A DNA stretch of 32,000 nucleotides from Desulfocapsa sulfexigens DSM 10523 (lineage in GTDB: Bacteria > Desulfobacterota > Desulfobulbia > Desulfobulbales > Desulfocapsaceae), in the NCBI RefSeq assembly GCF_000341395.1, contig NC_020304.1, forward strand, positions 600,001 to 632,000, read 5' to 3'. Below, one piece after another: positions 10,694 through 30,587 of this stretch (the stretch's first letter is position 1; the number at the start of each line of letters is the position of its first letter). Under the pieces are notes generated by a model. The model did no database searches. It saw only the letters and a list, made by a program, of their open reading frames with translations, and was not told the origin of the DNA. Made by a program: the position numbers and the translations under genes.

Positions 10694-11747
10694 TCAGTAC
10701 AGTCGGCGAAAGGCCGATGCCTTGATCACAGCCACCACTTCGGCGCCCTTACGGAGATCAAGCTCACGGATCGCCTCCGGCACAACCTGGGAGACAAGAC
10801 TTCTCCCGTTGCAGGCCAGCTCTACCCCGATCCGGTTGCCTTCGCCAAAGACATCGGTCACCCGACAGGCAAGGAGATTACGGGCGGAGGTGGCCACAGG
10901 ATGCTGTTTGAAGAGGGTAATGTCCTTGGCTCCAAGCTCAAAAACGTTCTCCCCCTCCCCTCCCGGTTCGGTGAGAATCAATTCGGTCCCCCCATCGGTA
11001 GGCCCAGAGGTCATCATGCGGCTGCGGAGGCGGCAGGTGAAAAAGGTTGGCATAGCCGCGGTTGCCGGCGACCAGTCCCCGCCGTGCCAGATCTTCCGCC
11101 GCCAGACGCTCCTGGAGCCGCCCCTGGCCAAAAACCAGGACTTCATCTGTCATCAGCCGGATCTCCTGCATTGAATGACTGATAAAGAGCAGAGGAATCT
11201 CGAACTGGTCAAGGACCGTCCGCAGATAGGGAATAATCTGAAACTTCAACTCCTGGTCCAGGCCGGTCAGGGGTTCATCCATCAGAATAAGACGAGGGCA
11301 GGCCAGGACAGTGCGGCCAAGGGCCACCCGCTGCCGCTCTCCACCGGAAAGACTGTTCACCCCCCGCTCCAGGAGATGATCGAGGCCCAATACCTTGATG
11401 ATCGCCTCCGGCGTACCACGACGCTGATCCGGCGGAGTCCGTTTCCAGCCGTAAAAGAGATTGCGACGGACATTCATGTGGGGAAAGAGGCGGGCGTGCT
11501 GAAAGACCACCCCGATCCGGCGCTCCTGCGGGGGAAGGCTGATCTTTTTTTCACAGTCATAGAGGATCTGACCGTCCAGCACAATACGGCCCCGGTCAGG
11601 TTTGAGCAGTCCGGCCAGAATATGCATAAAGGTTGACTTACCACTGCCGGAGGGCCCAAATATCCCACATTTTTTCTCGGCCAGGGAAAAGGCCACCTGC
11701 AGGGAAAAATTACCGACCCTTTTTGTTATATCCACTTCAAAGAGCAT
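10694..11747 (-). pseudogene. modC: Molybdate ABC transporter ATP-binding protein ModC, interrupted by a 1-nt frameshift (or sequencing error)
   Basis: The 269-aa ORF (10938-11747) carries Walker A GPSGSGKST, LSGGERQRV and Walker B LILMDEP. The TOBE/Mop-like C-terminus (...SARNLLACRVTDV...VIKASAF) continues in another frame (10694-11146). Removing one G from the G6 run (C6 on + strand, 10988-10993) joins them into about 350 aa. Confidence 0.85.
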
Positions 11748-11750
11748 CAG

Positions 11751-12428
11751 CTACCTCCTGCGGAAGGAACGTGCCGAGGCTTCGCTGACCAGGAGGACCA
11801 GGAAGGAAAGGCCGATGGAGACCAGACAGAGCGACAGGGCCATGGAATCTCCCCCAGGGGTGTTGGTATACTCGTAGATGGCCAACGGAATGGTCTGGGT
11901 AACTCCGGGAATATTGCCGGCCAGAATGATGGTGGCCCCAAACTCTCCAAGGCTTCTGGCAAACATCAGGGTCATGCCCGCCAGAACGGCCCGGCCGGAG
12001 AGGGGCAGGATGACCGAATAAAGGCTGTCCCACCACCTGGCCCCCAGGGTTCGGGCCGCCTGGAGGTACTGCTCATCAATCCCTTCCATGCCGATCCTGA
12101 TGGAACGGACCAGAAGTGGAAAGCCGACCACGGCCGAGGCGATCACCGCCCCTTTCAGGGTAAAAATGATCCGGAGATCGAAAAACCGGAGCACCGGCCC
12201 AAGAGAGCCGGACTGGCCGAAGAGAAGGAGGAGAAGATACCCGACCACCACCGGAGGGAGTACCAGCGGCAAATTCACCACCCCCTCCAGAGCCGCCCGG
12301 CCCGGGATCCTGGTAAAGACCAGAAGATAGGCCGCAGCAAAACCGAGAGGAAGCGAGAGCAGGGTCGCGGCAGTGGCCACCTTGAGAGATAGGATAATGG
12401 CCTGGATATCCTGGGGAGTAAGAGACAT
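11751..12428 (-). CDS. modB: Molybdate ABC transporter permease
   Basis: 225-aa polytopic protein with an EAA-like loop (AARTLGARWWDSLYSVILPL), sitting between modA and modC. AGGAGG lies before the modC start. Confidence 0.9.
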   Translation of the reverse strand: MSLTPQDIQAIILSLKVATAATLLSLPLGFAAAYLLVFTRIPGRAALEGVVNLPLVLPPVVVGYLLLLLFGQSGSLGPVLRFFDLRIIFTLKGAVIASAVVGFPLLVRSIRIGMEGIDEQYLQAARTLGARWWDSLYSVILPLSGRAVLAGMTLMFARSLGEFGATIILAGNIPGVTQTIPLAIYEYTNTPGGDSMALSLCLVSIGLSFLVLLVSEASARSFRRR

Positions 12429-12467
12429 AATATTTACGTTCTCAATCTATTCAGATTGCCGATTCAA

Positions 12468-13235
12468 TCAGTGGGAGGAAGCAACTGTGAAGCCGTATTT
12501 CTCCAGAATAGTAACGGCCGCCGGCGTACCCAGATAGGCGAGAAAGGCCTGGGCATCCGGATTCTTCATTCCGGCAAGTGTCAGCCCCAATGGATAGGCA
12601 ATGGGGTCATGGAGCTCTGCGGGTACGGTCAAAAGGATAACAGCCCGGCGGGCGAGCAGGGCATCGGTCTTATAAATAAAGGCCCCGTCCACCTCGGCGC
12701 GATCCGCGTAGAGCAGGGCCTGGCGGACATCCTTGGCCATAACCAGTTTATGTTCTTTTTCCAGTTGCTCGTAGATCCCTGCCACCTGCATGGCCTGGGC
12801 CGCATACTGTCCGGCAGGCACACTCTTCGGACTCCCTATGGCTATACGGGAAAGAGTGGCGACTCCCCCCAAATCGTGAACCAGAGTATCCTCGGCTCCG
12901 ACAAAAACCAGAGAATTCCTGGCAAAAATCCGAACCGTTTCCGGAACAACCTGTTTTTCTTTGAGAAGGTAATCCATCCATTTTTTATTGGCCGAGACAT
13001 AAAGGTCGGCAGGAGCCCCTTGGACGATCTGTTTGGCCAGAGAGCCGGATGAAGCGAAATTAGGAAGAATGGCAATCCCTGGATGTTCCTTGATAAATTC
13101 TCCGTTCAGTTCCTTGAAGGCATCAGTCATACTGGCCGCCACCGAAAGCCGGATCTCCCCCCCGGCCAGGGCCTGGACAGCTGTGGCGCAAAGCGCCAGA
13201 AAAACGAATACGAGTAGTCTTGCTTGCCTTTTCAT
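12468..13235 (-). CDS. modA: Molybdate ABC transporter periplasmic substrate-binding protein
   Basis: Signal peptide (LALCATAVQALA), then VAASMTDAF, ASSGSLAKQI and FIYKTDA motifs typical of ModA. ATG at 13235 lies 7 nt after AGGAGA (a GTG at 13238 is also possible). Confidence 0.9.
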   Translation of the reverse strand: MKRQARLLVFVFLALCATAVQALAGGEIRLSVAASMTDAFKELNGEFIKEHPGIAILPNFASSGSLAKQIVQGAPADLYVSANKKWMDYLLKEKQVVPETVRIFARNSLVFVGAEDTLVHDLGGVATLSRIAIGSPKSVPAGQYAAQAMQVAGIYEQLEKEHKLVMAKDVRQALLYADRAEVDGAFIYKTDALLARRAVILLTVPAELHDPIAYPLGLTLAGMKNPDAQAFLAYLGTPAAVTILEKYGFTVASSH

Positions 13236-13343
13236 CACGATTTCTCCTTATTGCTCTTATTTATCCTGTAGACCAACGGACAGAGTTTGGGCCTTTACCG
13301 GGGTCACGTCTCCCTGTACAACTAGCCGCCTTACTTGTTCTTT

Positions 13344-13601: not shown

Positions 13602-13976
13602 TCACCAGGGGAGCTCCATTGTCTCTTCGGCCAGAAAATTCGCCAGCCGCTCCTGCAGGGCGGCGAACCGAGTCAAAGCCTCTTCACCGGCTGTAGTGAC
13701 CCGGGCCCCACCACCGCCCTTCCCTCCCTTACTGGTTTCCACCAAAGGGAAAGGGGCCTGACGATTCATGGAACTAATCAGATCCCAGGCGTGCTTGTAT
13801 GACATTTTCATGGACCGGGCTGCCGCGGAAATAGAACCATATTCCCGGACTCGCTGCAGAAGCACTACTCGACCGACGCCGAGAAAAGTCTCTCCGTTAT
13901 TTTCAATCCAGATCCTGCCATTACAGGAATACCCTGCAACAACCTCTTTCTTCTTATGGGCTCGATGCTTCTTCAT
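13602..13976 (-). CDS. ModE N-terminal-domain-only regulator (wHTH, no Mop/TOBE molybdate-binding domains)
   Basis: 124 aa. GVGRVVLLQRVREYGSISAAARSMKMSYKHAWDLISSMN followed by GGKGGGGARVT matches the ModE DNA-binding/dimerisation domain. The protein ends before any Mop domain. Confidence 0.75.
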   Translation of the reverse strand: MKKHRAHKKKEVVAGYSCNGRIWIENNGETFLGVGRVVLLQRVREYGSISAAARSMKMSYKHAWDLISSMNRQAPFPLVETSKGGKGGGGARVTTAGEEALTRFAALQERLANFLAEETMELPW

Positions 13977-14117: not shown

Positions 14118-14543
14118 TCAGGGGACAATAGCCGGAAGCGTGACAATAAATTCACGAATTTCATCTCGGACCCGGCTGTAATGCTTGAGGGCCTCATCTT
14201 CGCTTGCGGCATTTTCAGCTAATTTCGGAGGGTCGTCAAAGCCGTGATGGATTACTCTCACAGGGCCGGGAAAAAAAGGACAGTTTTCATCAGCGTGACC
14301 GCAGACGGTGATTACCAGATCAAACGCATTTTCGGGCAGCTCGCTGACCAGCTTTGAACGGTGACCGGAAATATCCACCCCGGCTTCGGCCATTGACTTA
14401 ACCGCCAGTGGGTTGAGACCATGGGTCTCGATACCGGCAGAAAAAGCCTCGATGGTGTTGCCAAGGAGCCTGCGGGCCCAACCTTCCGCCATCTGACTGC
14501 GACAGGAATTGCCTGTGCAGAGGAAAAGGACCTTTTTTTTCAC
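14118..14543 (-). CDS. arsC: Arsenate reductase, LMW-PTP / thioredoxin-coupled type
   Basis: P-loop LCTGNSCRSQMAEGW plus the distal cysteine pair in VCGHADENCP (three-Cys pattern as in the pI258-type enzyme). GTG start at 14543. Confidence 0.9.
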   Translation of the reverse strand: MKKKVLFLCTGNSCRSQMAEGWARRLLGNTIEAFSAGIETHGLNPLAVKSMAEAGVDISGHRSKLVSELPENAFDLVITVCGHADENCPFFPGPVRVIHHGFDDPPKLAENAASEDEALKHYSRVRDEIREFIVTLPAIVP

Positions 14544-14746: not shown

Positions 14747-15834
14747 TCATTCGTCTCTGCTGACATGGCAGACACCGGTCAGAGTTTCCCTGGCATGGGG
14801 AAAGTATTTTTTCTTGAACCAGAAGGCAACGTTGACCAGGGCGATCAGTACCGGAACCTCCACCAGAGGTCCGATAACCGCTGCAAAGGCCTGGCCGGAA
14901 TCGATACCGAATACGGCGATGGCCACGGCGATGGCGAGCTCGAAGTTGTTGGAGGCAGCCGTAAAAGAAAGGGTGGTGGCCTGCTCGTATGTGGCTCCCA
15001 CCTTCATGGACATGAAAAAGGAAACCAGAAACATGACCAGGAAATAGATGGCCAACGGGATCGCAATTCGAACAACGTCAAAGGGCAGCTGAACAATATA
15101 TTCACCCTTCAACGAAAACATGACGACGATGGTGAAAAGGAGAAACATCAGGGTAAGGGGGCTGATCATGGGGATCAGTTTTTCCTGATACCACTCCTCA
15201 CCCTTCAGGCGCAGACCGATGAAACGGGTCAACATCCCGGCGATAAAGGGGATACCAAGGTAAATAAAGACTGACTGGGCGATCTGCCCCATGGAAATAT
15301 CGACCTCCAGCCCTGCAATGCCGAAAATTTTGGGAAGAAAGGTAATGAAGAACCAGGCATAAACCGAAAAAAAAGCACCTGAAAAATGGAGTTGAAGGCG
15401 ACCAGGCCCGCGCAGTATTCCCGATCTCCCTCGGCCAGATCATTCCAGACAATGACCATGGCGATACAGCGGGCCAGGCCGATCAGGATGAGGCCAACCA
15501 TATACTCGTGCTGCCCGGAGAGAAAGCTTATCGCCAGGCCGAACATCAGGACAGGCCCGATAATCCAGTTCTGGATAAGTGAAAGCGTCAGTATCCTGCC
15601 GTTTCTGAATACCTCATGCAGCTGCTCATAGCGCACCTTGGCCAAGGGCGGGTACATCATGAGAATGAGGCCCACGGCGATGGGTATATTGGTAGTCCCC
15701 ACCTGAAAGGCGTTGATAAAATCCTTAATGCCGGGCAGAAAATACCCGCTCCCGACGCCAATCAGCATGGCAAGAAAAATCCAGAGGGTGAGAAATCGAT
15801 CAAGAAAAGAAAGTCTTCTGCCTTCAGCACTCAT
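14747..15834 (-). pseudogene. acr3: ACR3-family arsenite efflux permease, interrupted by a 1-nt frameshift (or sequencing error)
   Basis: The N-terminal part ([20 protein letters not shown]..., from ATG 15834) and the C-terminal part (ORF 14747-15292) are both ACR3-like. The frames join if the T8 run (A8 on + strand, 15367-15374) is T9, giving ...[34 protein letters not shown]... and about 362 aa. Confidence 0.85.
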
Positions 15835-15848
15835 GGGGAGTCCTCCGA

Positions 15849-16208
15849 TCAACCTGGTTCCGTGACGCAGGTGTCTGCTTTTTTTGTTTTCAGAAACGCT
15901 CCCAGGCGATGACGGTCTTCGCGGGCTTGCTCCAAGTGGAGGCAATATTTCTGGAGGAAGTCAAAGAGAGCTTCACGAATCCCGTTATCAGCACTGATGC
16001 GATAGTACATCCACACACCGCGGCGCTTCCCTTCAACCAGGTCGGTGTTGCGTAGTATCGCCAGGTGCCTTGACACCGTTGATTGCGGCATATCCAGAGC
16101 AGCCTCAAGATCGCATACGCACAGTTCACCGTTTTTTAACAGGAGAAACAGGATCCTCAGTCTGGTCTCATCGCCGACCGTCTTAAAAATTTGTACTGTT
16201 TTTTTCAT
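15849..16208 (-). CDS. arsR: ArsR/SmtB-family metalloregulator
   Basis: From M54 of the track ORF: [34 protein letters not shown]..., with the ELCVCDL As(III)-binding motif and wHTH; 119 aa. SD GGAGG for acr3 lies just after its stop. Confidence 0.85.
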
Positions 16209-16214
16209 AAATAC

Positions 16215-16240
16215 AATATATCCGGATATGCGGATATATT
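16215..16240. promoter_or_regulatory. Candidate ArsR operator/promoter: perfect inverted repeat AATATATCCG-N6-CGGATATATT
   Basis: Read directly; it also contains the nested palindrome ATATCCGGATAT. It starts 7 nt upstream of the arsR ATG and includes a TATATT -10-like hexamer on the minus strand. Confidence 0.45.
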
Positions 16241-16645
16241 GCAAACACTTTTTTTGTCGGCGGTGCATGAATTCTAATCTTTTGACTGATAGATTTTTTC
16301 TGGTGACCACCGAGCTCTGTCTTGTCACGCCAGTAATCGGGATATGAGAAGCAATCAGGCAACCCACTGAGAACAGGACCTTTCCATTATCTGCTTCCCA
16401 GGCGAACCGCTTTTATATGTTGCTGTTTTCCGGGGAGTATTATAGGGTATTTTCATGTAAATCCGGCCGGAATATTGGGAATCATGACCTGTGACGTCCT
16501 CTGCGGTGAATATTGTGGAGTAAAAGGGGTGAGAACGGCCCCTCGCAGGCTCCGCGTCAGGCCGTTTTGAGAGAAAAACAGGTTTCTGGAGACCCGTTTT
16601 CCCGCTGATCCTTTGCCTGACGGCAAGCAAAATCCGGTCATTTAT

Positions 16646-17851
16646 ATGGATCAATTCATCGCCAGACAGCCCATTCTCAATATCCATAAAAAGCTGCATG
16701 CCTATGAGCTACTCTACAGGGGGGCAAAGCATTACAGCCTGGACAAGGTAAGCAGTGACCGGGCTACCACCAGTGTTCTTTCAAGCGTTTTTTTGACAAG
16801 AGATATCCAGGAAATTTCTGCCTATCGCCCCTGTTTCGTCAATTTTTCTCAGAATTTGATAGAGACCATGCTTCCCACTTCCTTTCCACAATCGCAAATT
16901 GTGGTCGAAGTCCTCGAAGATGTCCAGCCCACTCCGAAAGTTCTCGCAGCCTGTAATCGTCTGCGCAGGAGCGGATATACCATAGCGCTCGATGATTTTA
17001 TCTATGACCGGAAACTTGAACCTCTTATCGAATTGGCAGATATCATCAAGATTGACATCCGGATGACCCCCCTTGATACCATTATTCGGACCCTGAACCT
17101 GCTTTCCAGGCATAAGGTGAAGCTCCTTGCCGAAAAAGTTGAAACACTTCAGGAGTTTGAAAAGGCAAGCAAGATGGGGTTCGTATATTTTCAGGGGTAT
17201 TTTTTCTGTGAGCCGGAGCAGGTACATATCAAAGAACTTCCTGCCAATAAAGCCAGCCTCGTCGCCCTGCTGGCTGAGGTAATTGGAAAAAAAACAACCC
17301 TTGAGAAGCTCTACAAAATAATCAGCACTGATCTTGCCGTCACCTACAAGCTTTTGAAGTTTCTCAACTCAGCCTATTTTTATCGTCTGGAAAAGGTGAA
17401 AACCGTCAAGCATGCTATCGCCTATCTGGGAGCGAAGGAACTGACGCGTTTTATCATGCTGATCATCATTTCAGAGCTGGCTGTGGAGAAGCCGGGAGAG
17501 CTGGTGCGTCTGGTTCTTGTTCGAGCCAAGTTCTGTGAATTACTGGGAAAGTCCTGTTCTTATGCCTGTGACTCCTCGGAACTGTTCGTCCTGGGGTTGT
17601 TTTCTCTTTTGGATACCATGCTTGAAACGTCCATGAAAAAGGTTTTGGAAAATCTCCCGGTCAGCAGCATGATCAAGGATGCACTGTTATTGAAAACCGG
17701 CCTCTATGCCGATTTCCTCCGGGTGCCCATCGCATTTGAAAAAAACGATGATACCGTTTCCACCGCATTGCTTGCAAAGTTGGGAGTTAACATGGAAAAG
17801 GCATCTGAATCGTACCTTGTGGCCATGCGCTATGCCAACGGACTGGTATAA
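16646..17851 (+). CDS. EAL-domain (c-di-GMP phosphodiesterase-like) protein with C-terminal HDOD domain
   Basis: ARQPILN...YELLYR, FVNF, VVEVLED, ALDDF, IKID, AEKVET and FQGYFF are the EAL catalytic signatures. The C-terminal 200 aa or so (KLLKFLNSAYF...AIAYLG...) is HDOD-like. ATG at 16646 is preferred over TTG at 16613. Confidence 0.85.
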   Translation: MDQFIARQPILNIHKKLHAYELLYRGAKHYSLDKVSSDRATTSVLSSVFLTRDIQEISAYRPCFVNFSQNLIETMLPTSFPQSQIVVEVLEDVQPTPKVLAACNRLRRSGYTIALDDFIYDRKLEPLIELADIIKIDIRMTPLDTIIRTLNLLSRHKVKLLAEKVETLQEFEKASKMGFVYFQGYFFCEPEQVHIKELPANKASLVALLAEVIGKKTTLEKLYKIISTDLAVTYKLLKFLNSAYFYRLEKVKTVKHAIAYLGAKELTRFIMLIIISELAVEKPGELVRLVLVRAKFCELLGKSCSYACDSSELFVLGLFSLLDTMLETSMKKVLENLPVSSMIKDALLLKTGLYADFLRVPIAFEKNDDTVSTALLAKLGVNMEKASESYLVAMRYANGLV

Positions 17852-18543: not shown

Positions 18544-18843
18544 TTACTTTGAAACTTTGACTGTTGCGGGTGCCTTATTTACATATTTAAAAAATACCGG
18601 GAAGGCAACAAAGAAAGCCACACAGAGCAGATACTCAATACCTTTGATATGGGTGTAGTAATCAACCAGAGTATGCAGAGGTTTCACCATTCCGATTGCC
18701 ACCATATACTGTCCGGCAAGTTCGCTCACCGACCAGCCAACCGATGAAAGGGCACTGGTAAGGGCTGCACCAACCCAGAGACACATGATGGAACCGGCTG
18801 CGAGAAGTATTCTTGATCCTGTTTTTGATCTATTCTCTTTCAT
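18544..18843 (-). CDS. Uncharacterised 99-aa membrane protein (two hydrophobic segments), cassette copy A
   Basis: Open frame with a basic N-terminus and segments ILLAAGSIMCLWVGAALTSAL and YLLCVAFFVAFPVFF. Residues 6-93 are identical to the paralogue at 28400-28699 despite 15 silent nucleotide differences. Confidence 0.75.
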   Translation of the reverse strand: MKENRSKTGSRILLAAGSIMCLWVGAALTSALSSVGWSVSELAGQYMVAIGMVKPLHTLVDYYTHIKGIEYLLCVAFFVAFPVFFKYVNKAPATVKVSK

Positions 18844-18884
18844 GATATTATCCTTATTTCTCTATTTTAACTTGTGTGTGTTTT

Positions 18885-19079
18885 TCAGCCGATAACTGCA
18901 GTAAGGTATCCCTTGACAACGTTCAAAGGTCCCACGCTTATCATAGCGCTTGCGAGACAGGCAAATCCCCAGATGCCGACAAGGGCTGCCATGGTCATTC
19001 CAGCACCGAGTGCAAATGTAGAAGTTTCGTATCCGGCTTTAACCTGAGTAGTTGTGGTAGCTTGTGTGTTTGTATTCAT
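18885..19079 (-). CDS. Uncharacterised 64-aa single-pass membrane protein with Thr-rich N-terminus, cassette copy A
   Basis: GGAGG-N5-ATG at 19079 (the track's upstream ATG at 19091 overlaps the SD). TM segment FALGAGMTMAALVGIWGFACLASAMI. Paralogue at 28742-28936 shows silent differences in the conserved part. Confidence 0.7.
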   Translation of the reverse strand: MNTNTQATTTTQVKAGYETSTFALGAGMTMAALVGIWGFACLASAMISVGPLNVVKGYLTAVIG

Positions 19080-19136
19080 GGTACCCTCCATATAGAATTG
19101 ATTTGACTTACTTTTTCTTTTCTTTACCCTCTATAT

Positions 19137-19152
19137 AGCAGCTATCATGCCA
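19137..19152 (-). promoter_or_regulatory. Sigma54 -24/-12 promoter of cassette copy A
   Basis: Minus strand reads TGGCATGATAGCTGCT (GG-N10-GC), about 45 nt upstream of the first start codon. The same element is at the same offset in copy B. Confidence 0.6.
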
Positions 19153-19242
19153 GTTTCTGTCCTCTCTGTTTCATCTTTGCAATAAAGACGATAATACATT
19201 GATTCAACATGACATTTACTGGGATAATCACCAAAACTCCCC

Positions 19243-19273
19243 TGCGACACTTATGCGCCCTGGCAGTGTGGCA
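19243..19273. promoter_or_regulatory. Candidate enhancer-binding-protein site (UAS): TGCGACACT-N13-AGTGTGGCA
   Basis: Inverted repeat matching at 8 of 9 positions, about 100 nt upstream of the sigma54 element. Conserved with identical spacing in copy B (29100-29130). Confidence 0.45.
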
Positions 19274-19685
19274 AAACTCGGAACTGTAGTTTTAGGATGA
19301 GATTGTGTGGTTTGTGTCCTACGAATGTGTTGCAGGTCTTGCGGATAGGTGTCGCATTACGAAACAGGCAAGGAAACTGAGGAGATATTTAAACTGGGGG
19401 AAACTTCATTCTCTGTCAGGAAGTGGCACGATGGTGACAACTCATCCTGGGGCACCAGAATCTGTGGTGAACAGACATCTTAATTTCGGCCATGCGGATT
19501 GATTTTGTTCAGTGTTTACGATAAGCTTTTTTAAACAGAGTTTCCCTACGGAAAATCGGATCGGTGAAAAAAAGTACGGGTTGTATACGATGAAAAAAGT
19601 TGGGTTTTAAACTTTTCTTCACGCTAACCACGCTATGTCCTGACCATCTAAGCTTTTAGGAAGAAAAACCTTGAGGAGTATATAA

Positions 19686-20492
19686 ATGAAACGACTGTGT
19701 ATTACCAGAAAACTATTTTTACTTGCTTTCATCGTCTTTTTTTCGCCTCCTCCAGTCTCTGCAACAAATGCTGAACTCACCCTGGCCATTGCTGATTCCA
19801 CCTGCAGCACCATTAAGCAAGTAGGAAAAATTTTCAGCCGGCAAACCAACATTAAACTCAATTATATCTGCCAGTCTTCAGGATTACTTGTTAAAGGAAT
19901 TATAGAAGAGGCCATACTCCCTGATTACTTCCTCTCCGCCAACAAAAAATGGATGAACATCGTGGTAGAGGCTGGCTATGTTGATTCTGCCGCAGTAACA
20001 ACAAACTGGGGGAATCAACTGGTGGTGACTTCTTTTCCATCCAAAACGGGTGATTTACAATTGCAAGGCTTAGCTGACCTGCTCACTCCGTCGGTAGAAA
20101 AGGTGCTTATAGGAGACCCGGAAATCGCCCCTTACGGAGCGTACGCCAAACAGGCGCTGGTCAATGCCGATATGTGGGAAAAAATCCAGCCTAAGCTCAA
20201 AATTAGTCCCAAAATAAGCCTATCCATTAGATCACTGAAAAAATTAAGCCTGACAACACCCTGCATCGTCGCCTTCTTGTATAAAACAAATATCAGCGAC
20301 AAAATGCAGATACATTTTGCTGTTCCCCAAAACCTTTATCCTCGGATAAATTATTTTTCGGCACCACTCATAAGGTCTGTACAAAAAACAGAAATGGCAC
20401 TTTTTCTTGATTTCATCAGAGGAGATAAGGCCTCCTCTATTTTCGAATCCGCAGGTTTTGTTGTTAACTTGCCTGCTCAGAGTCATCACTAA
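19686..20492 (+). CDS. Orphan ModA-like periplasmic oxyanion-binding protein (no cognate permease or ATPase adjacent)
   Basis: Signal peptide ending VSA. LTLAIADST, QSSGLLVKGI, SANKKWMN and AFLYKTNI align with VAASMTDAF, ASSGSLAKQI, SANKKWMD and AFIYKTDA of the canonical ModA in this window. Confidence 0.8.
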   Translation: MKRLCITRKLFLLAFIVFFSPPPVSATNAELTLAIADSTCSTIKQVGKIFSRQTNIKLNYICQSSGLLVKGIIEEAILPDYFLSANKKWMNIVVEAGYVDSAAVTTNWGNQLVVTSFPSKTGDLQLQGLADLLTPSVEKVLIGDPEIAPYGAYAKQALVNADMWEKIQPKLKISPKISLSIRSLKKLSLTTPCIVAFLYKTNISDKMQIHFAVPQNLYPRINYFSAPLIRSVQKTEMALFLDFIRGDKASSIFESAGFVVNLPAQSHH

Positions 20493-20501
20493 AAGGTCAC
20501 C

Positions 20502-23500
20502 ATGTCAGAAAAGAGTAAAAACAAAGAGGATCATTTTGCCTTCACCTTACGCAGGGGTTTAGGGAAAAATATTTTTGTCAGTTTCATGGTCCTTGCCCTT
20601 ATGCCACTTCTTGTGGCCAGCGTCCTGAGTTACCACAACGCCCACACCAGTCTACTCACCAAGGAAGTGAGGAATCTACAGACGGCCTTGTCGCTCCGAG
20701 GTCTTTATTTTGAGGCATATTTTCAGGAGCGCCTGGACGACCTGGCACTCCAGGCTGATCTCAGTGACAACATATTTCTCCTTCAGGATTTAAAAGAAAG
20801 CTATAACAAAAGTGGCCTCTCTCTCTCTCAGTTTGTTAAATCCTATAACCATACCAGAATTGTTACCGAACACTCTCAGGACCTTCAAGATTTCCAGGAG
20901 CGGGCTGGGTACTCGAATATTTACATGATAGACATTGCAGGTGATATCCTCTTTAGCATCACCGCAGAAGAAGATTTGGGCACTAACATTTTTCATGGCC
21001 CCTATCATGAGACAGAACTTGCCAAACTCTGCCGTCTCGCCATCGAAACAGGCCATTCTCTCGCCTCCGACCTAACGATCTATGGACCTTCCGGTACTGA
21101 GAAAACGCTGTTTACGGCTCAACTGATGGTGAATGATTATGGTGAAGAAATCGGCGTTCTGGTACTGCAAATCGAGTTAAAAAAAATAGACACGCTCATG
21201 GCAGATGTCAGTGGGCTTGGCAAAACCGGTCAGATTTTTGTAGTTGGCAACGATAGCACCCTGCGCAGCACCCTTCGCAGCGACAGGACAAAGCAGGTCC
21301 TGTCAACTGATGTAAACAACCCGCTGGTTACGAAATGGCTTCAGAGAGAGGTAATTCGCCACGGGGTTGGCCATGAGGAAGCGAGAAAACACCTTCTCCT
21401 TGGTGATTTCGAGGGTTCTATCTATAAGGGACAGAGCGGCAACAATGTTCTAGGCATTTCCGCAGATATGGATTCTCTAGGCCAATATGATATGCACTGG
21501 CTGATGATTGCTGAAGTAGACGAGGCTGAAGTTTTAGAGGCCGCCAGCAATTTGCAGCACATGCTCATTCTCGTTGTCTCTTTCACCACCCTTTTTATTG
21601 TATTCCTGGCCGCTTTTCTCGCCCGGCGAATGATCATGCCGCTAGTGAGTCTTAGCGCCTGGGCAAAACAGGTCTCTACAGGTGATCTCTCTATCCATGA
21701 GATGCACCCTCCGTCCAATGAAATTGGCACTCTTTACCAAGCACTTTCCGACATGGTTGGTGAACTGCGAGAAATGATCGATGTTAAAGACCGCGAGGAC
21801 TGGTTCAAAACCGGGGAAACCGGCCTTGATAAAGAGATGAGAGGAGAAGGAAACATTGCCACGCTTGGCGATAAAATTCTTAATTATCTCTGCCGCTATC
21901 TTGAGTTACCCGTCGGCGTGTTTTTTGCCTACGAAAATGAGACTTTAAAATTCACGGCAGGCTATGCTTACAAAAAACAGACAGAAGACGACGACATTGT
22001 CTTTGCCTTGGGTGAGGGCCTGATCGGTCAGGCGGCCCGTGACAAGAGAAAAATTTATCTCCGCGAAGGGGCGGCTGAGGAAGCCCACCTGAAAACCACA
22101 TCGGGCCTTGGTATTGTGAATCTCCGATCTTTATTGATCATCCCTCTGGTGCGCGATGACAACATTCTTGGGGTACTTGAATTTGGCTCCAATCGGATTC
22201 TTACAGAAGAGGAAATAAACTTCCTCGAACATGTTTCCGAATCAACAGCAATCGCATTCCAGAGCTCTAATTCCAGGCAACAACTGCAGGTACTCCTCAA
22301 ACAAACCCAGGAGCAGACTGAGCAGCTTCAGACACAACAGCAAATCCTTGAGGAAAGGAATAAAAAAATTGAGCTGAGCAGCAAGTACAAATCGGAATTT
22401 CTGGCTAACATGAGTCATGAACTGCGAACTCCGCTCAACTCCATCCTTCTTCTTTCCAGCCTCATGGCTGACAACAAGCACAACGCCCTTTCAAAAGATG
22501 ATGTTGAGTCTGTTAAAATTATCAACAAGGCAGGTAACGATCTTCTCAATCTGATTAATGAAGTTCTTGATCTGGCTAAAGTCGAATCAGGCCACATGAC
22601 GATCGAGATTGACGATGTACAAATTGTTGAGCTCGCCCAGCACATGAAACATCTTTTCTATCCGGTTTGTGAAGACAAGGCGATTGATTTCAAGGTGACC
22701 TTAGATGAGAATATGCCAGACACCTTCAGAACCGATCAATCAAGGCTGGAGCAGATACTGAAAAACTTTTTGTCAAACAGCTGTAAATTCACAAAAAATG
22801 GCAAAGTATCACTGCATATCGGGAGAGTGGCCACACTTCATCCCGATTTAGCCAGCTCTACACCTGAAGAATTTATGTCACCAGAGAATCTGGCATTTAC
22901 CGTCACTGATAGTGGGATTGGTATTGCCAAAGAAAAGCAGGATCTTATTTTTGAATCCTTTCAGCAGGCAGATGGCAGTACCTGTCGTCAGTATGGTGGC
23001 ACTGGCCTGGGCTTGTCGATAAGCCTTGAAATGGCCAAGCTTCTGGGAGGATGTATTGTCATGACCAGCGAACCTGGTCAGGGATCTCAATTTTCCCTCA
23101 TTGTCCCTACAGAGCAGAACAATGAGGACAATGATTCCCATGGACGAATAACAGCAATACCAAGCAATCAAAGAACTACTTTACCTGTAACAGAGAAGGT
23201 GGTTACCCAAAAAAGTGCTGACAATGTTGCCGATGACAGAAAAAATATCCTGAACGATGATCTGGTTTTGTTAATTATTGATGATGATCCTGATTTTGCA
23301 ACGATTGTCCGTGACGTAGCCAGGAAACAGCAATTTAAGGTTTTGGTGGCTGAAAGCGGTGAGATTGGCCTGCAGCTCATCGAGTTATACAATATAACTG
23401 CTATTACTCTGGATATCGGTCTCCCGGGTATGAGCGGCTGGACCGTTCTCAGTCGGCTTAAAGAAGACAGCTCCACACGCCATATTCCTGTTCACGTTAT

Positions 23501-24452
23501 TTCTGCTTCAGATCACGATAATGAGGCCTTAAAAATGGGAGCCTTGAATTTTGTTACTAAACCGATAGATGCTGAAGTACTTATTGACGCATTAGTTCAG
23601 TTGCGTGACATGGCCTCTGCCCGAGGGAAAAAGGTTCTTCTGGTTGAAGATGACAACACCCTGTCACAGGTGTTGAAAAATTTCATCATGGCTGATGATA
23701 TTGAATTCCTTCGGGCATCGACCGGAGCACAAGCTCTTACCATTTTACGAGAAAGTACACCTGATTGCGTCATTCTGGATCTCGGTTTACCGGATATGGG
23801 TGGTGAAGAGTTGTTGCGGATAATTAACGACGTGGAGGAACTGCAGAAAATCCCGATAATTGTCTATACAGGGCAAGACCTGACATCACAGCAGAAGGCC
23901 TTGCTCGACCAATACAGTCGGACAACAATCTTGAAAGGTCCGTTGTCCCATGAACGCTTGTTGGCAGAGATAACCCTTTTTATGCATCGGGCTGAAAAAG
24001 ACCTACCTCCTCAGCAGCAGGAGATAGTGCAGCGCTTTTATAATAAAGAACATGTTTTTAAAGGTAGAAAAATTCTCCTGGTTGACGACGATATGCGCAA
24101 TGTTTTTTCTCTGCGCAAAATACTTTCGGACAAGGACTTAGATGTTGTTGTCGGTAAGAATGGCATGGAAGCCTTGGAGCAGTTAAAAAAGAATGATGAT
24201 ATTGATTTGGTACTCATGGATATCATGATGCCTGTTATGGACGGTTTCGAGGCCATGGCCAAAATACGCAAAGAGAAAAAGTTCAAAAATTTACCAATTA
24301 TTGCCATTACGGCCAAAGCCATGAAGGGAGATCGCAAAAAATGTATTGATGGCGGCGCCAATGACTATCTGGCAAAACCCATTGATACGGAAAGATTATT
24401 TGCCATGCTGAGGGTCTGGCTCCACGACCGGGAAAGCAATACAAACATATAA
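20502..24452 (+). CDS. Hybrid sensor histidine kinase: TM, about 300-aa extracytoplasmic domain, TM, HAMP, GAF, HisKA, HATPase, then three receiver domains
   Basis: H-box FLANMSHELRTPLNS (about 22410). N/G boxes (DSGIGI, GGTGLGLSI). Three receiver cores (LLIIDDD...TLDIGLPGMSG; VLLVEDD...ILDLGLPDMGG; ILLVDDD...LMDIMMPVMDG...ITAKA). GAF-like segment with LIGQAARD. No HPt motif seen. Confidence 0.9.
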   Translation: MSEKSKNKEDHFAFTLRRGLGKNIFVSFMVLALMPLLVASVLSYHNAHTSLLTKEVRNLQTALSLRGLYFEAYFQERLDDLALQADLSDNIFLLQDLKESYNKSGLSLSQFVKSYNHTRIVTEHSQDLQDFQERAGYSNIYMIDIAGDILFSITAEEDLGTNIFHGPYHETELAKLCRLAIETGHSLASDLTIYGPSGTEKTLFTAQLMVNDYGEEIGVLVLQIELKKIDTLMADVSGLGKTGQIFVVGNDSTLRSTLRSDRTKQVLSTDVNNPLVTKWLQREVIRHGVGHEEARKHLLLGDFEGSIYKGQSGNNVLGISADMDSLGQYDMHWLMIAEVDEAEVLEAASNLQHMLILVVSFTTLFIVFLAAFLARRMIMPLVSLSAWAKQVSTGDLSIHEMHPPSNEIGTLYQALSDMVGELREMIDVKDREDWFKTGETGLDKEMRGEGNIATLGDKILNYLCRYLELPVGVFFAYENETLKFTAGYAYKKQTEDDDIVFALGEGLIGQAARDKRKIYLREGAAEEAHLKTTSGLGIVNLRSLLIIPLVRDDNILGVLEFGSNRILTEEEINFLEHVSESTAIAFQSSNSRQQLQVLLKQTQEQTEQLQTQQQILEERNKKIELSSKYKSEFLANMSHELRTPLNSILLLSSLMADNKHNALSKDDVESVKIINKAGNDLLNLINEVLDLAKVESGHMTIEIDDVQIVELAQHMKHLFYPVCEDKAIDFKVTLDENMPDTFRTDQSRLEQILKNFLSNSCKFTKNGKVSLHIGRVATLHPDLASSTPEEFMSPENLAFTVTDSGIGIAKEKQDLIFESFQQADGSTCRQYGGTGLGLSISLEMAKLLGGCIVMTSEPGQGSQFSLIVPTEQNNEDNDSHGRITAIPSNQRTTLPVTEKVVTQKSADNVADDRKNILNDDLVLLIIDDDPDFATIVRDVARKQQFKVLVAESGEIGLQLIELYNITAITLDIGLPGMSGWTVLSRLKEDSSTRHIPVHVISASDHDNEALKMGALNFVTKPIDAEVLIDALVQLRDMASARGKKVLLVEDDNTLSQVLKNFIMADDIEFLRASTGAQALTILRESTPDCVILDLGLPDMGGEELLRIINDVEELQKIPIIVYTGQDLTSQQKALLDQYSRTTILKGPLSHERLLAEITLFMHRAEKDLPPQQQEIVQRFYNKEHVFKGRKILLVDDDMRNVFSLRKILSDKDLDVVVGKNGMEALEQLKKNDDIDLVLMDIMMPVMDGFEAMAKIRKEKKFKNLPIIAITAKAMKGDRKKCIDGGANDYLAKPIDTERLFAMLRVWLHDRESNTNI

Positions 24453-24515
24453 AATAGACGAACCAGGCAGAGCAGACCCACTGCATCTGTACTGATTTAT
24501 TACTGAGACTGCTAA

Positions 24516-25493
24516 ATGAATACACCTGAAATTCTTGTTGTAGATGATAGAGCGGAAAATCTTCTGGCCATGAAGCGGCTTTTCGAGGATTTTGATGCCG
24601 AAATATATGCCGTCTCATCAGGAAATGATGCTTTATCACTCGTTCTTGATCATGACTTTGCCCTCATTTTATTGGATGTCCAGATGCCAGACATGGATGG
24701 CTTCGAAACAGCGGAAATGATCCGTTTATCCGACGACAAAGCACATATCCCTATCATTTTTGTGACGGCTATCAGCAAAGAACAACAACATGTGTTCAAG
24801 GGATATGAAAGTGGGGCAGTTGATTATATTTTCAAGCCTGTGGACGGGAAAATTCTCCTCAGCAAAGCTGCCTTTTTCCTTACTCTTTACAGGCAAAAAC
24901 AGGAATTACAACAGCTGATAGAAGAATTAAACCAGTCTAAAGAACTCATCAAAAAACAAAATGAAGCATTAAGCCATCTGGCATTGCATGACGACCTTAC
25001 CGGTTTATACAATCGCAGGCATTTTAACACCATGCTGAAACAGGAATTTTACCGTAGTGAGCGTTATGGTAGCGACCTCGCCATTCTGATGCTCGACCTT
25101 GACCATTTCAAGAAGGTCAATGACACTAAAGGGCATGATTTCGGTGATTTTGTCCTTAAAGAGTTTGCACGAAGAATGAAAGAAACAAGTCGGCCCACAG
25201 ACCTGGTTTTTCGTTTCGGGGGCGAGGAATTTATCATTCTCCTGCCTCAGACCGACCTGGCAGGAGGCATACAGGTTGGAGAAAAAATTCGCAAAAGCTG
25301 TGAAAAAGAAATGTATAGCAAGGGGCCACTAGAACTTTCGGTGACCACAAGTATTGGGGCAGCAGCAATCCATAGCAATAAGCCGCAAAAAACTGGTGAC
25401 TTGATTCAAATGGTCGATATGGCATTATATCAGGCAAAAGATGGTGGTCGGAACAGGGTTGTCGGTTATAGAGGGGCAAAAACAAGTATATAG
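24516..25493 (+). CDS. Response regulator with GGDEF output (diguanylate cyclase, PleD/WspR-like)
   Basis: Receiver (ILVVDDR...LLDVQMPDMDGF...VTA), coiled linker, GGDEF domain with RPTD I-site 5 residues before GGEEF. Confidence 0.9.
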   Translation: MNTPEILVVDDRAENLLAMKRLFEDFDAEIYAVSSGNDALSLVLDHDFALILLDVQMPDMDGFETAEMIRLSDDKAHIPIIFVTAISKEQQHVFKGYESGAVDYIFKPVDGKILLSKAAFFLTLYRQKQELQQLIEELNQSKELIKKQNEALSHLALHDDLTGLYNRRHFNTMLKQEFYRSERYGSDLAILMLDLDHFKKVNDTKGHDFGDFVLKEFARRMKETSRPTDLVFRFGGEEFIILLPQTDLAGGIQVGEKIRKSCEKEMYSKGPLELSVTTSIGAAAIHSNKPQKTGDLIQMVDMALYQAKDGGRNRVVGYRGAKTSI

Positions 25494-25598: not shown

Positions 25599-25968
25599 AT
25601 GTACAATACAAAATATCTACTATTGACAACCTGTTTTTTTCTCCTTTTTGTGCCATTATCCACATTCGGAAAATGTATTGAGGGGGACATTTGTCACGCC
25701 CCAAGGAAGTAAATACGTTGGAGACTGGGAAAACGGCAAGAAAAACGGAGATGGCACCCTGACATCTCCAGATGGCTATCGGTATGTCGGCACCTTCAGC
25801 AATGACCGACCAGATGGGTTGGGGATATTGACTTTTGCTGATGGTAGAAAGTATCAGGGTGAGTTCAGGGATGACAAGCCACACGGCCAAGGCATTTTAA
25901 CCCTGCAGAACGGAGCCAGGCAAGAAGGTACATTCAGAGACGGTATATACGTAAATGGCCAGAACTGA
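25599..25968 (+). pseudogene. Exported MORN-repeat protein, apparently split from its signal peptide by a 1-nt frameshift (or sequencing error)
   Basis: ATG 25599 encodes MYNTKYLLLTTCFFLLFVPLSTFGKC... and stops at about 25710. The MORN repeats (YVGDWENGKKNGDG, YVGTFSNDRPDG, YQGEFRDDKPHGQG) are in the +1 frame (track ORF 25648-25968). Deleting one base from G5 (25682-25686) or A4 (25670-25673) fuses them into about 122 aa. Confidence 0.6.
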
Positions 25969-29246: not shown

Positions 29247-30587
29247 TCAGAAAAAGTATCGTGCCCGCAGCTCTAACTTATTGGAATTAACTTTTTCTCC
29301 GTACTCGGTGTGGCTTCCGCCATCAATCATTGAGAAATTAAGACGAAATTCCCAATTAGTGACCCCGGTATAGACAACTTCCGGGGTTATGGAATAGCTT
29401 TGATCTTCCAGATTGATAAGGGCAACTATCCCGGGACTCAAATAAAGAAGGTCAAAGGGTTCCTTCTGGCTGAACTTTGCATACAAATAATGGCGTCCTG
29501 GCTGTGGCCGGCCATATCCCTTCAGGCTCATTTCTCTGGCCCTGTCCAGCAAGTCAGTTCCAGGTTCCAAGCTTTGGGAAAACCCAGCCTCTGCAAGTTG
29601 ATAAAAATCTGCCATCTCCTCCTCACTGTAGCCACCACCGTTATAATAATATTCCACAATAGACGTGACATCGTTTTCTGAGAGATAGCGAATCCCAAGC
29701 AAAGCGGAAAAGGTATCGTTTTCTTCAATGGATGAGGAGTTGTCTTCTTTAAGAATATTTTTTTTAAAACTGGGAATATACGCGGCTTCACCGTGGATCT
29801 CAAAGTGTGGCGCCAGATTGGTGGAGAAATCAAGGCCGATACTCTCGGAGCGGCTATTGCCAGTCAAGACCATCAGATCTATGTCGACATCCCTGTATAA
29901 GAGGTACAATTTCGCTGCCAGGTTGACTTCATCACTTTCGCCAAAATCATCATTGATATCATCCCATACCGGCAGCACGGCAATCGTCAGGGCAGCGGTT
30001 TGCAGAGCAGACTGCTGCCAGCTTTTAATAAAATCGCATTCCAGCGTCACATACCCCTCGAGGGCATCTTCGGGGTTATTGGGATCCTTGCGACGATTAA
30101 CAAAGCCCACCGGATTCCATGCATATCCCTTTCCCCATTTATAGGATTTTTTCCCAAGCGAGAATGTAGCGGAGGGAGTGGGTTGCAGAGACACATAGGC
30201 GGCGTTCACAAGCGTAAGGTCACTCCAGCCAATGGTATCCTGTTGCGCGGCAGCCTTAAGCTGTACATTTAGACTGCTTATACCATATTCATAACTGCCA
30301 TCAAGCTGTATACTGCCATAGAGCGAATCCATAGTGGATATATTGGGATCGGTAAGATTCAGGCGAGTAAAAACAGAGCCCTGGTTGATATCCGCATGCT
30401 CCCCCCTCAGCTCAACATACCCCCCGAGCTGATAGGGCTTCTTCTCAATCTCTTCAAGGTCAAAGGAGAATTCGTCACTACCATTTACAGGAGCAGCAAC
30501 TAACAGCAAACCAGACAGCAATAAAATCTTTGAAAAAAGAGATACAGTTATTCTACGATGAACTGTCCCTTTACTTTCGTAATTCAT
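29247..30587 (-). CDS. Putative outer-membrane beta-barrel protein, 446 aa
   Basis: Signal-like N-terminus (LLLSGLLLVAAPVNG), alternating amphipathic pattern, aromatic-rich C-terminus ending ELRARYFF. Downstream of a LolA-like gene in the same operon, with a 17-nt overlap. Confidence 0.6.
   Translation of the reverse strand: MNYESKGTVHRRITVSLFSKILLLSGLLLVAAPVNGSDEFSFDLEEIEKKPYQLGGYVELRGEHADINQGSVFTRLNLTDPNISTMDSLYGSIQLDGSYEYGISSLNVQLKAAAQQDTIGWSDLTLVNAAYVSLQPTPSATFSLGKKSYKWGKGYAWNPVGFVNRRKDPNNPEDALEGYVTLECDFIKSWQQSALQTAALTIAVLPVWDDINDDFGESDEVNLAAKLYLLYRDVDIDLMVLTGNSRSESIGLDFSTNLAPHFEIHGEAAYIPSFKKNILKEDNSSSIEENDTFSALLGIRYLSENDVTSIVEYYYNGGGYSEEEMADFYQLAEAGFSQSLEPGTDLLDRAREMSLKGYGRPQPGRHYLYAKFSQKEPFDLLYLSPGIVALINLEDQSYSITPEVVYTGVTNWEFRLNFSMIDGGSHTEYGEKVNSNKLELRARYFF

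Follow-up and report, generated by a model that had tools for sequence, protein, structure and literature searches.

An orphan ModA-like binding protein encoded with a hybrid kinase and a REC-GGDEF regulator in Desulfocapsa sulfexigens: a candidate oxyanion-sensing c-di-GMP pathway

Three co-oriented genes at positions 19686-25493 of a 32,000-nucleotide stretch of the Desulfocapsa sulfexigens DSM 10523 genome (NC_020304.1, positions 600,001 to 632,000; the whole stretch is referred to below as the window) encode a ModA-like solute-binding protein (SBP), a hybrid sensor histidine kinase and a REC-GGDEF response regulator, with gaps of 9 and 63 nt between them. This gene set, whose operon structure is read from gene spacing only, probably specifies a binding-protein-dependent signalling pathway, in which a ModA-derived oxyanion sensor would act on the kinase and, through it, on the production of cyclic di-GMP (c-di-GMP). 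The SBP is most likely the ligand-sensing partner of the adjacent kinase, as judged from gene context and sequence. This reading draws on the gene order, the domain content, the ModA fold, the equivalents of the ModA residues S12, S39 and Y170, the strict adjacency of SBP and transducer genes and the absence of transporter genes; from these we infer which ligand is bound, that the SBP docks on the kinase, in which direction the pathway responds and how phosphoryl groups are transferred.

Genes and domains of the candidate sensor operon

The three open reading frames (ORFs) are long and have strong profile matches, and are not chance features. The first (19686..20492, + strand) encodes a secreted protein of 268 aa that matches the Pfam profile PF13531 (SBP_bac_11) with an E-value of 1.8e-32 and the NCBIfam equivalog TIGR01256 (modA) with 95.7 bits against a cutoff of 62.5, which places it within the ModA model. 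Its N-terminus, MKRLCITRKLFLLAFIVFFSPPPVSA followed by TNAE, was read from the sequence as a predicted Sec-type signal peptide (residues 1-26, nt 19686-19763, + strand), and at this end the AlphaFold2 (AF2) model of the protein (pLDDT 89) has a helix at residues 5-18 and then a disordered stretch. When the model was compared with the PDB using Foldseek, the best 26 matches were all ModA-type proteins, with TM-scores of up to 0.90. A sequence search of the PDB also returned ModA-type proteins for 15 of its 15 matches, with E-values down to 3e-19.

Identity of the SBP to ModA proteins is 24-27%, and to the window's own ModA (12468-13238, - strand) it is 26-27%. The motifs IADSTC, CQSSG, SANKKWM and FLYKT of the SBP align with VAASMT, ASSG, SANKKWM and FIYKT of the window's own ModA. 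The original prediction, which had described a ModA homologue with a signal peptide, retained motifs and an altered first anion-binding motif, was therefore borne out on each of these points by the profile matches and the translation. Alignment with E. coli ModA indicated that all three side-chain donors are retained. S12 corresponds to S38 in the first anion-binding loop (IADSTC, 19788..19805, + strand), S39 to S65 in the second (CQSSG, 19869..19883, + strand) and Y170, a side-chain oxyanion donor, to Y199 in FLYKT (20274..20288, + strand). At the backbone-donor positions, A125 is replaced by Y150 and V152 by I177, the former lying in an APYG loop (20127..20138, + strand) that corresponds to P124-A125-G126 of E. 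coli ModA, a backbone NH donor, and that carries an aromatic residue at position 150. The first loop also has D37 in place of A11, and each loop carries a family-specific cysteine, C40 in the first and C62 in the second, where transport ModAs have A-A-S-[LM]-T at the first loop and F or A at the C62 position. On the basis of its PDB sequence matches, predicted fold and retained side-chain donors, the SBP is ModA-like. It is not classed as a transporter ModA because no ABC genes adjoin it and because, as described below, a signal transducer gene lies downstream in 50 of 50 loci of its clade.

The kinase ORF (20502..24452, + strand) begins 9 nt past the SBP stop codon and encodes 1316 aa, as had been described before this analysis. 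From Pfam matches and motif positions its architecture is TM-dCache-TM-HAMP-GAF-HisKA-HATPase-REC×3, TM denoting a transmembrane segment. TM1 (residues 24-44, nt 20571-20633) and TM2 (residues 354-374, nt 21561-21623) enclose about 310 residues that contain the periplasmic dCache-like domain (nt ~20673-21506). They are followed by HAMP (nt 21615-21773), GAF (nt 21855-22262), HisKA (nt 22389-22592, with the H-box at 22413-22439) and HATPase (nt 22731-23114) domains, and by three receivers at nt ~23262-23570, ~23631-23942 and ~24069-24386, all on the + strand. Each receiver appears intact, having an acidic pocket, an acceptor Asp, a Thr/Ser and a Lys. The best NCBIfam match of the kinase was LuxQ, at 343 bits far under the cutoff of 1200 and confined to the core region.

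The dCache-like character of the periplasmic domain is supported by profile and model comparisons. Pfam dCache_1 matched the window kinase with 37 bits (E 3e-9), below the gathering cutoff of 45 bits, and it scored above threshold in the kinase orthologues of two of the related loci described below (L017 and L018). An AF2 model of residues 1-430 (pLDDT 70.7, built on a thin alignment) has two alpha/beta modules along with a long stalk helix and a return helix, and its Foldseek matches were the dCache domains of chemoreceptors and kinases, namely McpB, McpH, PctA/B, mmHK1S and DctB. Homologue searches with the sensor region gave five matches for residues 1-430 and none for residues 44-352, and confidence in the model is moderate.

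The third gene (24516..25493, + strand) encodes a response regulator and diguanylate cyclase of 325 aa, with matches to PF00072 (E 5.6e-24) and PF00990 (E 6.4e-48). Its receiver has D54, T84 and K107, and an RPTD I-site (residues 226-229, nt 25191-25202, + strand) precedes the GGEEF active site (residues 235-239, nt 25218-25232, + strand) by the canonical five residues, as in diguanylate-cyclase regulators; the intact GGEEF and RxxD I-site foreseen for this protein were thus both present. The guanine-contact residues N202 and D211 are ones that we take to be canonical, from the sequence and from what is known of PleD. Against the PleD equivalog NF007135 the protein scored 258 bits, under the cutoff of 474, and it has a single REC domain, so that its architecture appears WspR-like rather than that of PleD (REC-REC-GGDEF). 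A Hypr-GGDEF output, producing cGAMP, was considered and rejected, since the specificity position presumably carries the canonical Asp (D211).

A signature-defined family and its signalling partners

Relatives of the SBP were collected by several searches. A word-indexed search of 5.8 billion proteins returned only 18 of them, at 44-86% identity; the next match stood at 31% and had a ModC-like ABC+TOBE ATPase called nearby. Scanning 185,579 species genomes with a clade profile gave 48 loci, and the closest relatives of the SBP are from a Desulfocapsa metagenome-assembled genome (MAG; 86% identity) and from Desulfobulbia MAGs. An exhaustive hidden Markov model (HMM) search of 1.84 billion cluster representatives, with clusters defined at 50% identity, gave 5,258 ModA-like matches at E<=1e-10, of which approximately 20 carried the clade signature. 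The signature ends where HMM scores reach the range of ordinary ModA proteins (~130-143 bits), and the lowest-scoring matches that bear it are fragments.

This signature was defined on an alignment of 71 non-identical family members. C40, C62, S38 and S65 are each present in 71 of the 71, with C40 located two residues past S38 and C62 three residues before S65. Position 37, equivalent to A11 of ModA, is N in 50 members, D in 19 and H in 2. Phe occupies position 150 (ModA A125) in 59 members, Tyr in 8 and Leu in 3, between an invariant P149 and G151. Position 199 (ModA Y170) has Phe in 44 members, Tyr in 25 and Leu in 2, the tyrosine being retained in the Desulfobulbia clade to which the window protein belongs. 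The two cysteines, the N, D or H at position 37 and the aromatic residue at position 150 are all absent from transport ModAs. In a neighbour-joining (NJ) tree, computed without bootstrap, the signature proteins formed a single clade on a long branch, apart from the transport ModAs, among them ModAs whose genes belong to the same loci and lie at a distance of a few kb. Public sources name the family members "molybdate ABC transporter substrate-binding protein", and no description of this family was found in literature searches on ModA-type binding proteins and signalling; a Geobacter genome paper that matched the topic of molybdate and signalling deals with ModE and modABC only.

The main new result concerns the gene neighbourhood. 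The original prediction had named as a refuting outcome that homologues would routinely be found with ABC permeases and that the adjacency would not be conserved, and the opposite was found. A gene for a membrane signal transducer lies directly downstream of the SBP gene in 46 of 46 signature-bearing genome loci and 4 of 4 metagenome loci (50 of 50 in all), and modBC never does. These 50 loci span 32-86% identity and have differing flanks; for two of them that are truncated by contig ends, and for a metagenome locus that is partial, the incomplete ORF downstream was assigned through its homology to partners seen at other loci. Where the spacing was read off, in the first five of the genome loci, SBP and transducer genes are separated by 9-60 nt. 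As in the known binding-protein-dependent kinases, the adjacency is co-oriented and conserved, and an extracytoplasmic domain is held between two transmembrane segments.

The transducers themselves are of more than one kind. In 32 loci, found in Sedimenticola, Thiobacillus, Sulfuricella, Methyloversatilis and other hosts, the partner is a protein of ~840 aa with a four-helix-bundle-like (4HB) periplasmic domain followed by HAMP-PAS-GGDEF-EAL. In ten loci it is a 4HB-HAMP hybrid kinase, in some cases with a histidine-phosphotransfer (HPt) domain. In the Desulfobulbia clade it is a dCache-HAMP-GAF hybrid kinase, followed by a REC-GGDEF protein in six of seven loci, the window included. With 32 GGDEF-EAL partners and the REC-GGDEF proteins that follow dCache kinases, c-di-GMP enzymes are the dominant output of the family. 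The output is not exclusively c-di-GMP, since in a Thiohalomonadaceae MAG (L023, 9344-10546) the gene after a 4HB hybrid kinase encodes a REC-SpoIIE regulator (PP2C phosphatase) in place of a c-di-GMP enzyme.

Additional genes were observed at a few of these loci. L019 (4785-6207), from a Deltaproteobacteria MAG with an SBP at 55% identity, has genes for a CheR-like protein (272 aa) and a CheB-like protein (200 aa, without REC) placed between those for the dCache hybrid kinase and the REC-GGDEF protein. Both assignments are readings of the translations and, if correct, they hint at methylation-based adaptation acting on the kinase pathway. A gene for an NMT1_2-family binding protein was also found just upstream of the module in L007 (313-1446) and in L014 (4294-5412); in L014 it has a PAS hybrid kinase of its own, which suggests tandem arrays of SBP-kinase sensors.

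The SBP-transducer pairing is kept in Desulfobulbia and, amid different flanks, in loci of beta-, gamma- and alphaproteobacteria. When the flanking ORFs were clustered all against all, no family other than the signalling partners occurred in more than eight loci, and a few loci had modBC or generic ABC ATPases. Given this strict pairing amid variable flanks, the conserved unit is the SBP together with its transducer. The core of the proposal, that the SBP serves the kinase and thereby feeds c-di-GMP, is supported by this comparative evidence; its ligand and its phosphotransfer steps are putative.

Ordinary ModA proteins served as controls, these being the window's own, those in L017, L049 and L055, the L062 and L063 proteins, and P0019. 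All seven adjoin ABC-transporter genes, with both modB and modC in six cases and only a ModC-like ABC+TOBE ATPase in P0019. The only two retrieved loci that lack the signature (25-30% identity) have modB and modC downstream, as do the ordinary ModAs in L017, L049, L055 and the window. In the window, no permease or ATPase gene was found adjoining the SBP, as had been expected. The genuine modCBA operon (10938-13238, - strand) lies on the opposite strand and comprises modA (12468-13238; SBP_bac_11), modB (11751-12428; BPD_transp_1) and modC (10938-11747; ABC_tran). It had been correctly recognised beforehand, at an estimated distance of 7 kb that was measured here as 6.4 kb from the SBP start. 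Elsewhere, the sensor gene is immediately preceded by modABC in L017, L049 and L055, and modBC is nearby in L041.

Proposed pathway, candidate ligands and alternatives

The logic of SBP, kinase and c-di-GMP is supported at the level of sequence and gene context, and the following sequence of events is proposed. The ModA-derived SBP would be exported to the periplasm, where it would capture a small tetrahedral oxyanion, most likely molybdate or tungstate, in the cleft between its lobes by a Venus-flytrap closure. It would then dock on the periplasmic dCache domain of the kinase rather than on ModBC. Closure driven by the ligand would alter the geometry of the kinase dimer, and this change would be relayed via TM2, HAMP and GAF to the DHp/CA core, shifting the balance between kinase and phosphatase activities. 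Phosphoryl groups may pass to the REC-GGDEF protein directly from the HisKA histidine, with the internal receivers as sinks or modulators, or by way of the receivers and an unlinked HPt protein. The phosphorylated regulator would make c-di-GMP, and its RxxD I-site would provide product feedback. The path of phosphotransfer is uncertain because kinases of the window type have three receivers and no HPt, compared with a REC-REC-HPt arrangement in a relative at 54% identity; a related kinase in L007 carries REC-REC-Hpt.

Molybdate or tungstate is the favoured candidate ligand, with sulfur oxyanions as possible ligands. The preference follows from the closest relatives being ModA proteins, from the invariance of S38 and S65, from the retention of Y199, from the presence of mod genes near some sensor loci, and from the physiology of D. 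sulfexigens. This organism has a MoFe nitrogenase as well as molybdopterin oxidoreductases that its genome paper links to the reduction of thiosulfate or tetrathionate (PMC3739170). In the same paper molybdate is described as a competitive inhibitor of sulfate activation, and inhibition experiments with it in this strain are reported (PMC3739170). The specificity of the SBP may differ from that of ModA, given the two invariant cysteines and the Asn/Asp at its pocket. In the AF2 model C40 is in the first turn of the helix at residues 37-54 and C62 is at the end of the strand at residues 57-63. The two probably form a disulfide that would staple both anion-binding loops, and it is conceivable that they gate binding according to redox state.

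Several observations weigh against this pathway and have to be set beside it. The pocket differs from that of ModA in having Asn/Asp for A11, an aromatic residue for A125 and two invariant cysteines beside the serines, and the equivalent of Y170 is Phe in most of the family, the window protein being an exception. The kinase has a dCache domain of its own, a type that in characterised receptors mostly binds its ligand directly. Since the partners of the SBP clade have either dCache or 4HB domains, which are unrelated periplasmic folds, the mode of docking cannot be uniform. No HPt match was found at E<=0.1 in the kinase or in six small neighbouring ORFs, with an HPt gene elsewhere in the genome being possible; the locus thus does not itself encode a multistep His-Asp-His-Asp phosphorelay, and the route to the REC-GGDEF protein is unclear. 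In L014 a REC-only protein replaces REC-GGDEF after the dCache kinase. The three cases in which modABC adjoins the sensor gene in betaproteobacteria are close to one another in the tree, so that they represent few independent events. Finally, no Moco riboswitch or other Rfam family was found at gathering thresholds in the ~600-bp leader of the operon or in the whole window.

In a first alternative the pathway is the same and the ligand is a sulfur or selenium oxyanion (thiosulfate, sulfate, sulfite, tetrathionate or selenate) or a thiomolybdate, so that substrates of the sulfur cycle would be coupled to c-di-GMP. We consider this unlikely overall, with an appreciable chance of being right. The departures from ModA at A11, at A125 and often at Y170, together with the gain of two invariant cysteines, would fit a changed specificity; SBP_bac_11 includes sulfate binders, and SubI was among the fold matches. 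Many of the named hosts are from groups that we regard as sulfur oxidisers or disproportionators, namely Desulfocapsa, Desulfobulbia, Desulfurivibrionaceae, Sedimenticola, Thiobacillus, Sulfuricella, Sulfurimicrobium, Thiohalomonadaceae and Ectothiorhodospiraceae. However, ModA proteins make up all of the best matches in sequence and in fold, with sulfate binders far lower, the TIGR01256 score exceeds its cutoff, and modABC is the sole transporter that recurs beside the module, all of which speaks against this alternative.

The kinase's own sensor domain leads to a second alternative, that dCache senses a ligand of its own and that the SBP is an accessory modulator, a second input or, as has been proposed for NspS-MbaA, an inhibitor in its apo form. 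Most characterised dCache domains do bind ligand directly, through the membrane-distal module (PMC8050422), and the pairing of the SBP clade with both dCache and 4HB domains suggests a loose interface. The one-to-one adjacency, on the other hand, is strict in all 50 loci, and the invariant serine donors argue that selection maintains the binding of ligand by the SBP, with a central place in the system. An informal reading of the dCache region also did not reveal the canonical amino-acid-binding R-x-W-Y motif. We regard this second alternative as quite improbable.

A third possibility, to which we give a slim chance, is that the SBP is a redox or thiol sensor, in which C40 and C62 form a reversible disulfide or react with sulfide or polysulfide, a change that would either control the affinity for oxyanions or serve directly as the signal. 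The invariance of both cysteines in 71 of 71 members, their absence from transport ModAs and their position flanking S38 and S65, beside the binding loops, would all be in keeping with such a role. There is also a precedent in Acinetobacter baumannii ModA, in which a non-canonical disulfide (C141-C189) lowers the affinity for molybdate ~170-fold, from 0.177 to 30 nM (PMC11734730). The A. baumannii cysteines, though, sit in the other lobe, and a structural disulfide is the simpler reading for a periplasmic protein.

That the SBP is merely a second transport ModA, for instance a tungstate-preferring one that feeds the ModBC encoded 6.4 kb away, with its adjacency to the kinase incidental, would agree with the TIGR01256 score, with the public naming of its relatives and with the presence of modCBA in the same region, but this was rejected as very improbable given the 50 of 50 pairing with transducers amid unrelated flanks, the lack of mod genes within 8 kb at most loci and the separation of the clade from transport ModAs in the NJ tree.

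Neighbouring genes, known systems and biological meaning

The surroundings of the operon contain further genes related to oxyanions and to c-di-GMP. The modCBA operon adjoins a gene for a ModE-like HTH protein and an ars cluster. The ModE-like protein (13602-13976, - strand; 124 aa) has HTH_1 only, without Mop/TOBE domains, and the 269-aa ModC (10938-11747, - strand) also lacks a TOBE domain, so that Mop-based cytoplasmic sensing of molybdate seems to be absent at this locus. In the ars cluster, which also includes arsR (15849-16367) and an LMW-phosphatase arsC (14118-14543), the ACR3/SBF-type arsenite carrier is split between two overlapping ORFs, 14747-15292 and 15229-15945 (both - strand), that match profile positions 129-190 and 2-107, respectively. 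The division into two ORFs points to a frameshift, pseudogene or sequencing error.

Further upstream, a 689-aa regulator (8527-10596, + strand) is an unusual three-part fusion, in which a GntR HTH and an aminotransferase-like domain of class I/II (MocR/PdxR type) are joined by an extra C-terminal LysR_substrate domain. At 16613-17851 (+ strand), 2 kb upstream of the sensor operon, there is a protein with a partial EAL domain and an HDOD domain that may be a degenerate c-di-GMP effector or phosphodiesterase; its TTG start may be wrong, as the EAL match spans only profile positions 101-236. Tiny membrane-like ORFs occur on the minus strand ahead of the SBP gene (18544-18843 and ~18890-19080), and the region upstream of it (18844-19685) ends in ~600 bp that are apparently non-coding. 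A scan of promoter and terminator consensus sequences gave no informative site, terminators not being above the shuffled expectation. Directly downstream of the operon lies a gene for a 106-aa MORN-repeat protein (25648-25968, + strand), and a 446-aa ORF without a Pfam match (29247-30587, - strand) adjoins LolA-like and FtsX-like genes.

Transporter-independent binding proteins that activate a membrane kinase or a c-di-GMP enzyme are a well-known kind of system, and the novelty claimed by the original prediction was overstated in this respect, HptA/HptS (an SBP_bac_11 protein with a dCache kinase) and AibB/TlpB (a ModA-family protein with a chemoreceptor) being already known (PMC8050422). The closest characterised analogue is HptRSA of Staphylococcus aureus, in which HptA, an SBP_bac_11 (PF13531) protein, docks on the dCache-type domain of the kinase HptS (PDB 6LKG/6LKH; PMC8050422). 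As in the window, the binding protein is encoded with signalling genes and not with a transporter, but its ligand is glucose-6-phosphate and its host is a Firmicute rather than a Gram-negative bacterium. HptS is not known to be a hybrid kinase, and the known output of HptA/HptS is transcriptional, through HptR, rather than c-di-GMP.

Two other kinase systems offer partial parallels. In the sensing of autoinducer-2 (AI-2) by Vibrio, LuxP binds the tandem-PAS (dCache-superfamily) periplasmic domain of the hybrid kinase LuxQ (PMC8050422). This resembles the window in combining a binding protein with a dCache-type hybrid kinase, and differs from it in that LuxP is of the Peripla_BP_4 family and has AI-2 as its ligand. 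The ligand switches LuxQ between kinase and phosphatase, and the relay runs through LuxU, an HPt protein, to LuxO, with no known GGDEF output. In TorT/TorS a dedicated non-transport binding protein likewise activates a hybrid kinase, by way of a helical-bundle periplasmic domain, which makes it the best analogue for the 4HB partners of the beta- and gammaproteobacterial loci, while TorT belongs to Peripla_BP_1 and its ligand is TMAO. TorS contains its own HPt, and its output is the transcription factor TorR. None of HptA, LuxP and TorT appeared in the PDB sequence search with the SBP at E<=1e-3 or among the top 50 fold matches; the system described here would thus work like HptA/HptS, LuxP/LuxQ and TorT/TorS without being orthologous to them.

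For the 32 loci with GGDEF-EAL partners the same logic is found in NspS/MbaA of Vibrio cholerae and in ScrB/ScrC, where a binding protein is encoded beside a membrane GGDEF-EAL protein and controls c-di-GMP; these respond to polyamines and the S-signal, respectively, and have no kinase step. Within the ModA family, AibB (IPR005950) has been reported to signal to the chemoreceptor TlpB in Helicobacter pylori (PMC8050422). Unlike the window SBP, AibB is linked to transporter genes, has been reported to bind AI-2 and has no known c-di-GMP output. AioX is listed as the SBP partner of the sensor kinase AioS (PMC8050422). This pair is not known to feed c-di-GMP either. The comparison with transport proteins, ModA of ModABC in E. 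coli (1AMF) and Klebsiella pneumoniae (8K8L), is close in structure: they share with the SBP their fold, at TM-scores reaching 0.9, the donors S12, S39 and Y170, and the motifs SANKKWM and GDP..P.G.YAK. The SBP is set apart from them by the lack of a linked permease or ATPase, by C40/C62, by N/D at A11 and an aromatic residue at A125, and by its separate clade. AioX, a member of another SBP family, binds the oxyanion arsenite.

The novelty lies in a coherent, signature-defined clade of ModA descent that stands outside transport and is wired mostly to c-di-GMP. To our knowledge, the established molybdenum sensors (ModE, the Moco riboswitch and TunR) are all cytoplasmic. It is a speculative and rather doubtful extension that the system represents the first extracytoplasmic sensing of molybdenum or tungsten, by a ModA-derived protein gated by its cysteine pair that would report both oxyanion and redox or sulfide state to c-di-GMP in sulfur-cycling bacteria.

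The C40/C62 signature and the gene context together provide a simple rule by which members of the family could be re-annotated as sensor components. The occurrence of one SBP clade with a dCache kinase, a 4HB kinase and a 4HB-GGDEF-EAL protein also represents a natural experiment in the recruitment of binding proteins by signalling receptors and in their exchange from one receptor to another. If the proposed pathway is correct, a periplasmic sensor derived from ModA would tie the availability or toxicity of trace-metal oxyanions to lifestyle, that is, to biofilm formation versus motility, via c-di-GMP. The hosts concerned depend on molybdenum or tungsten enzymes for their energy metabolism, and molybdate is in addition an inhibitor where the APS pathway is used.

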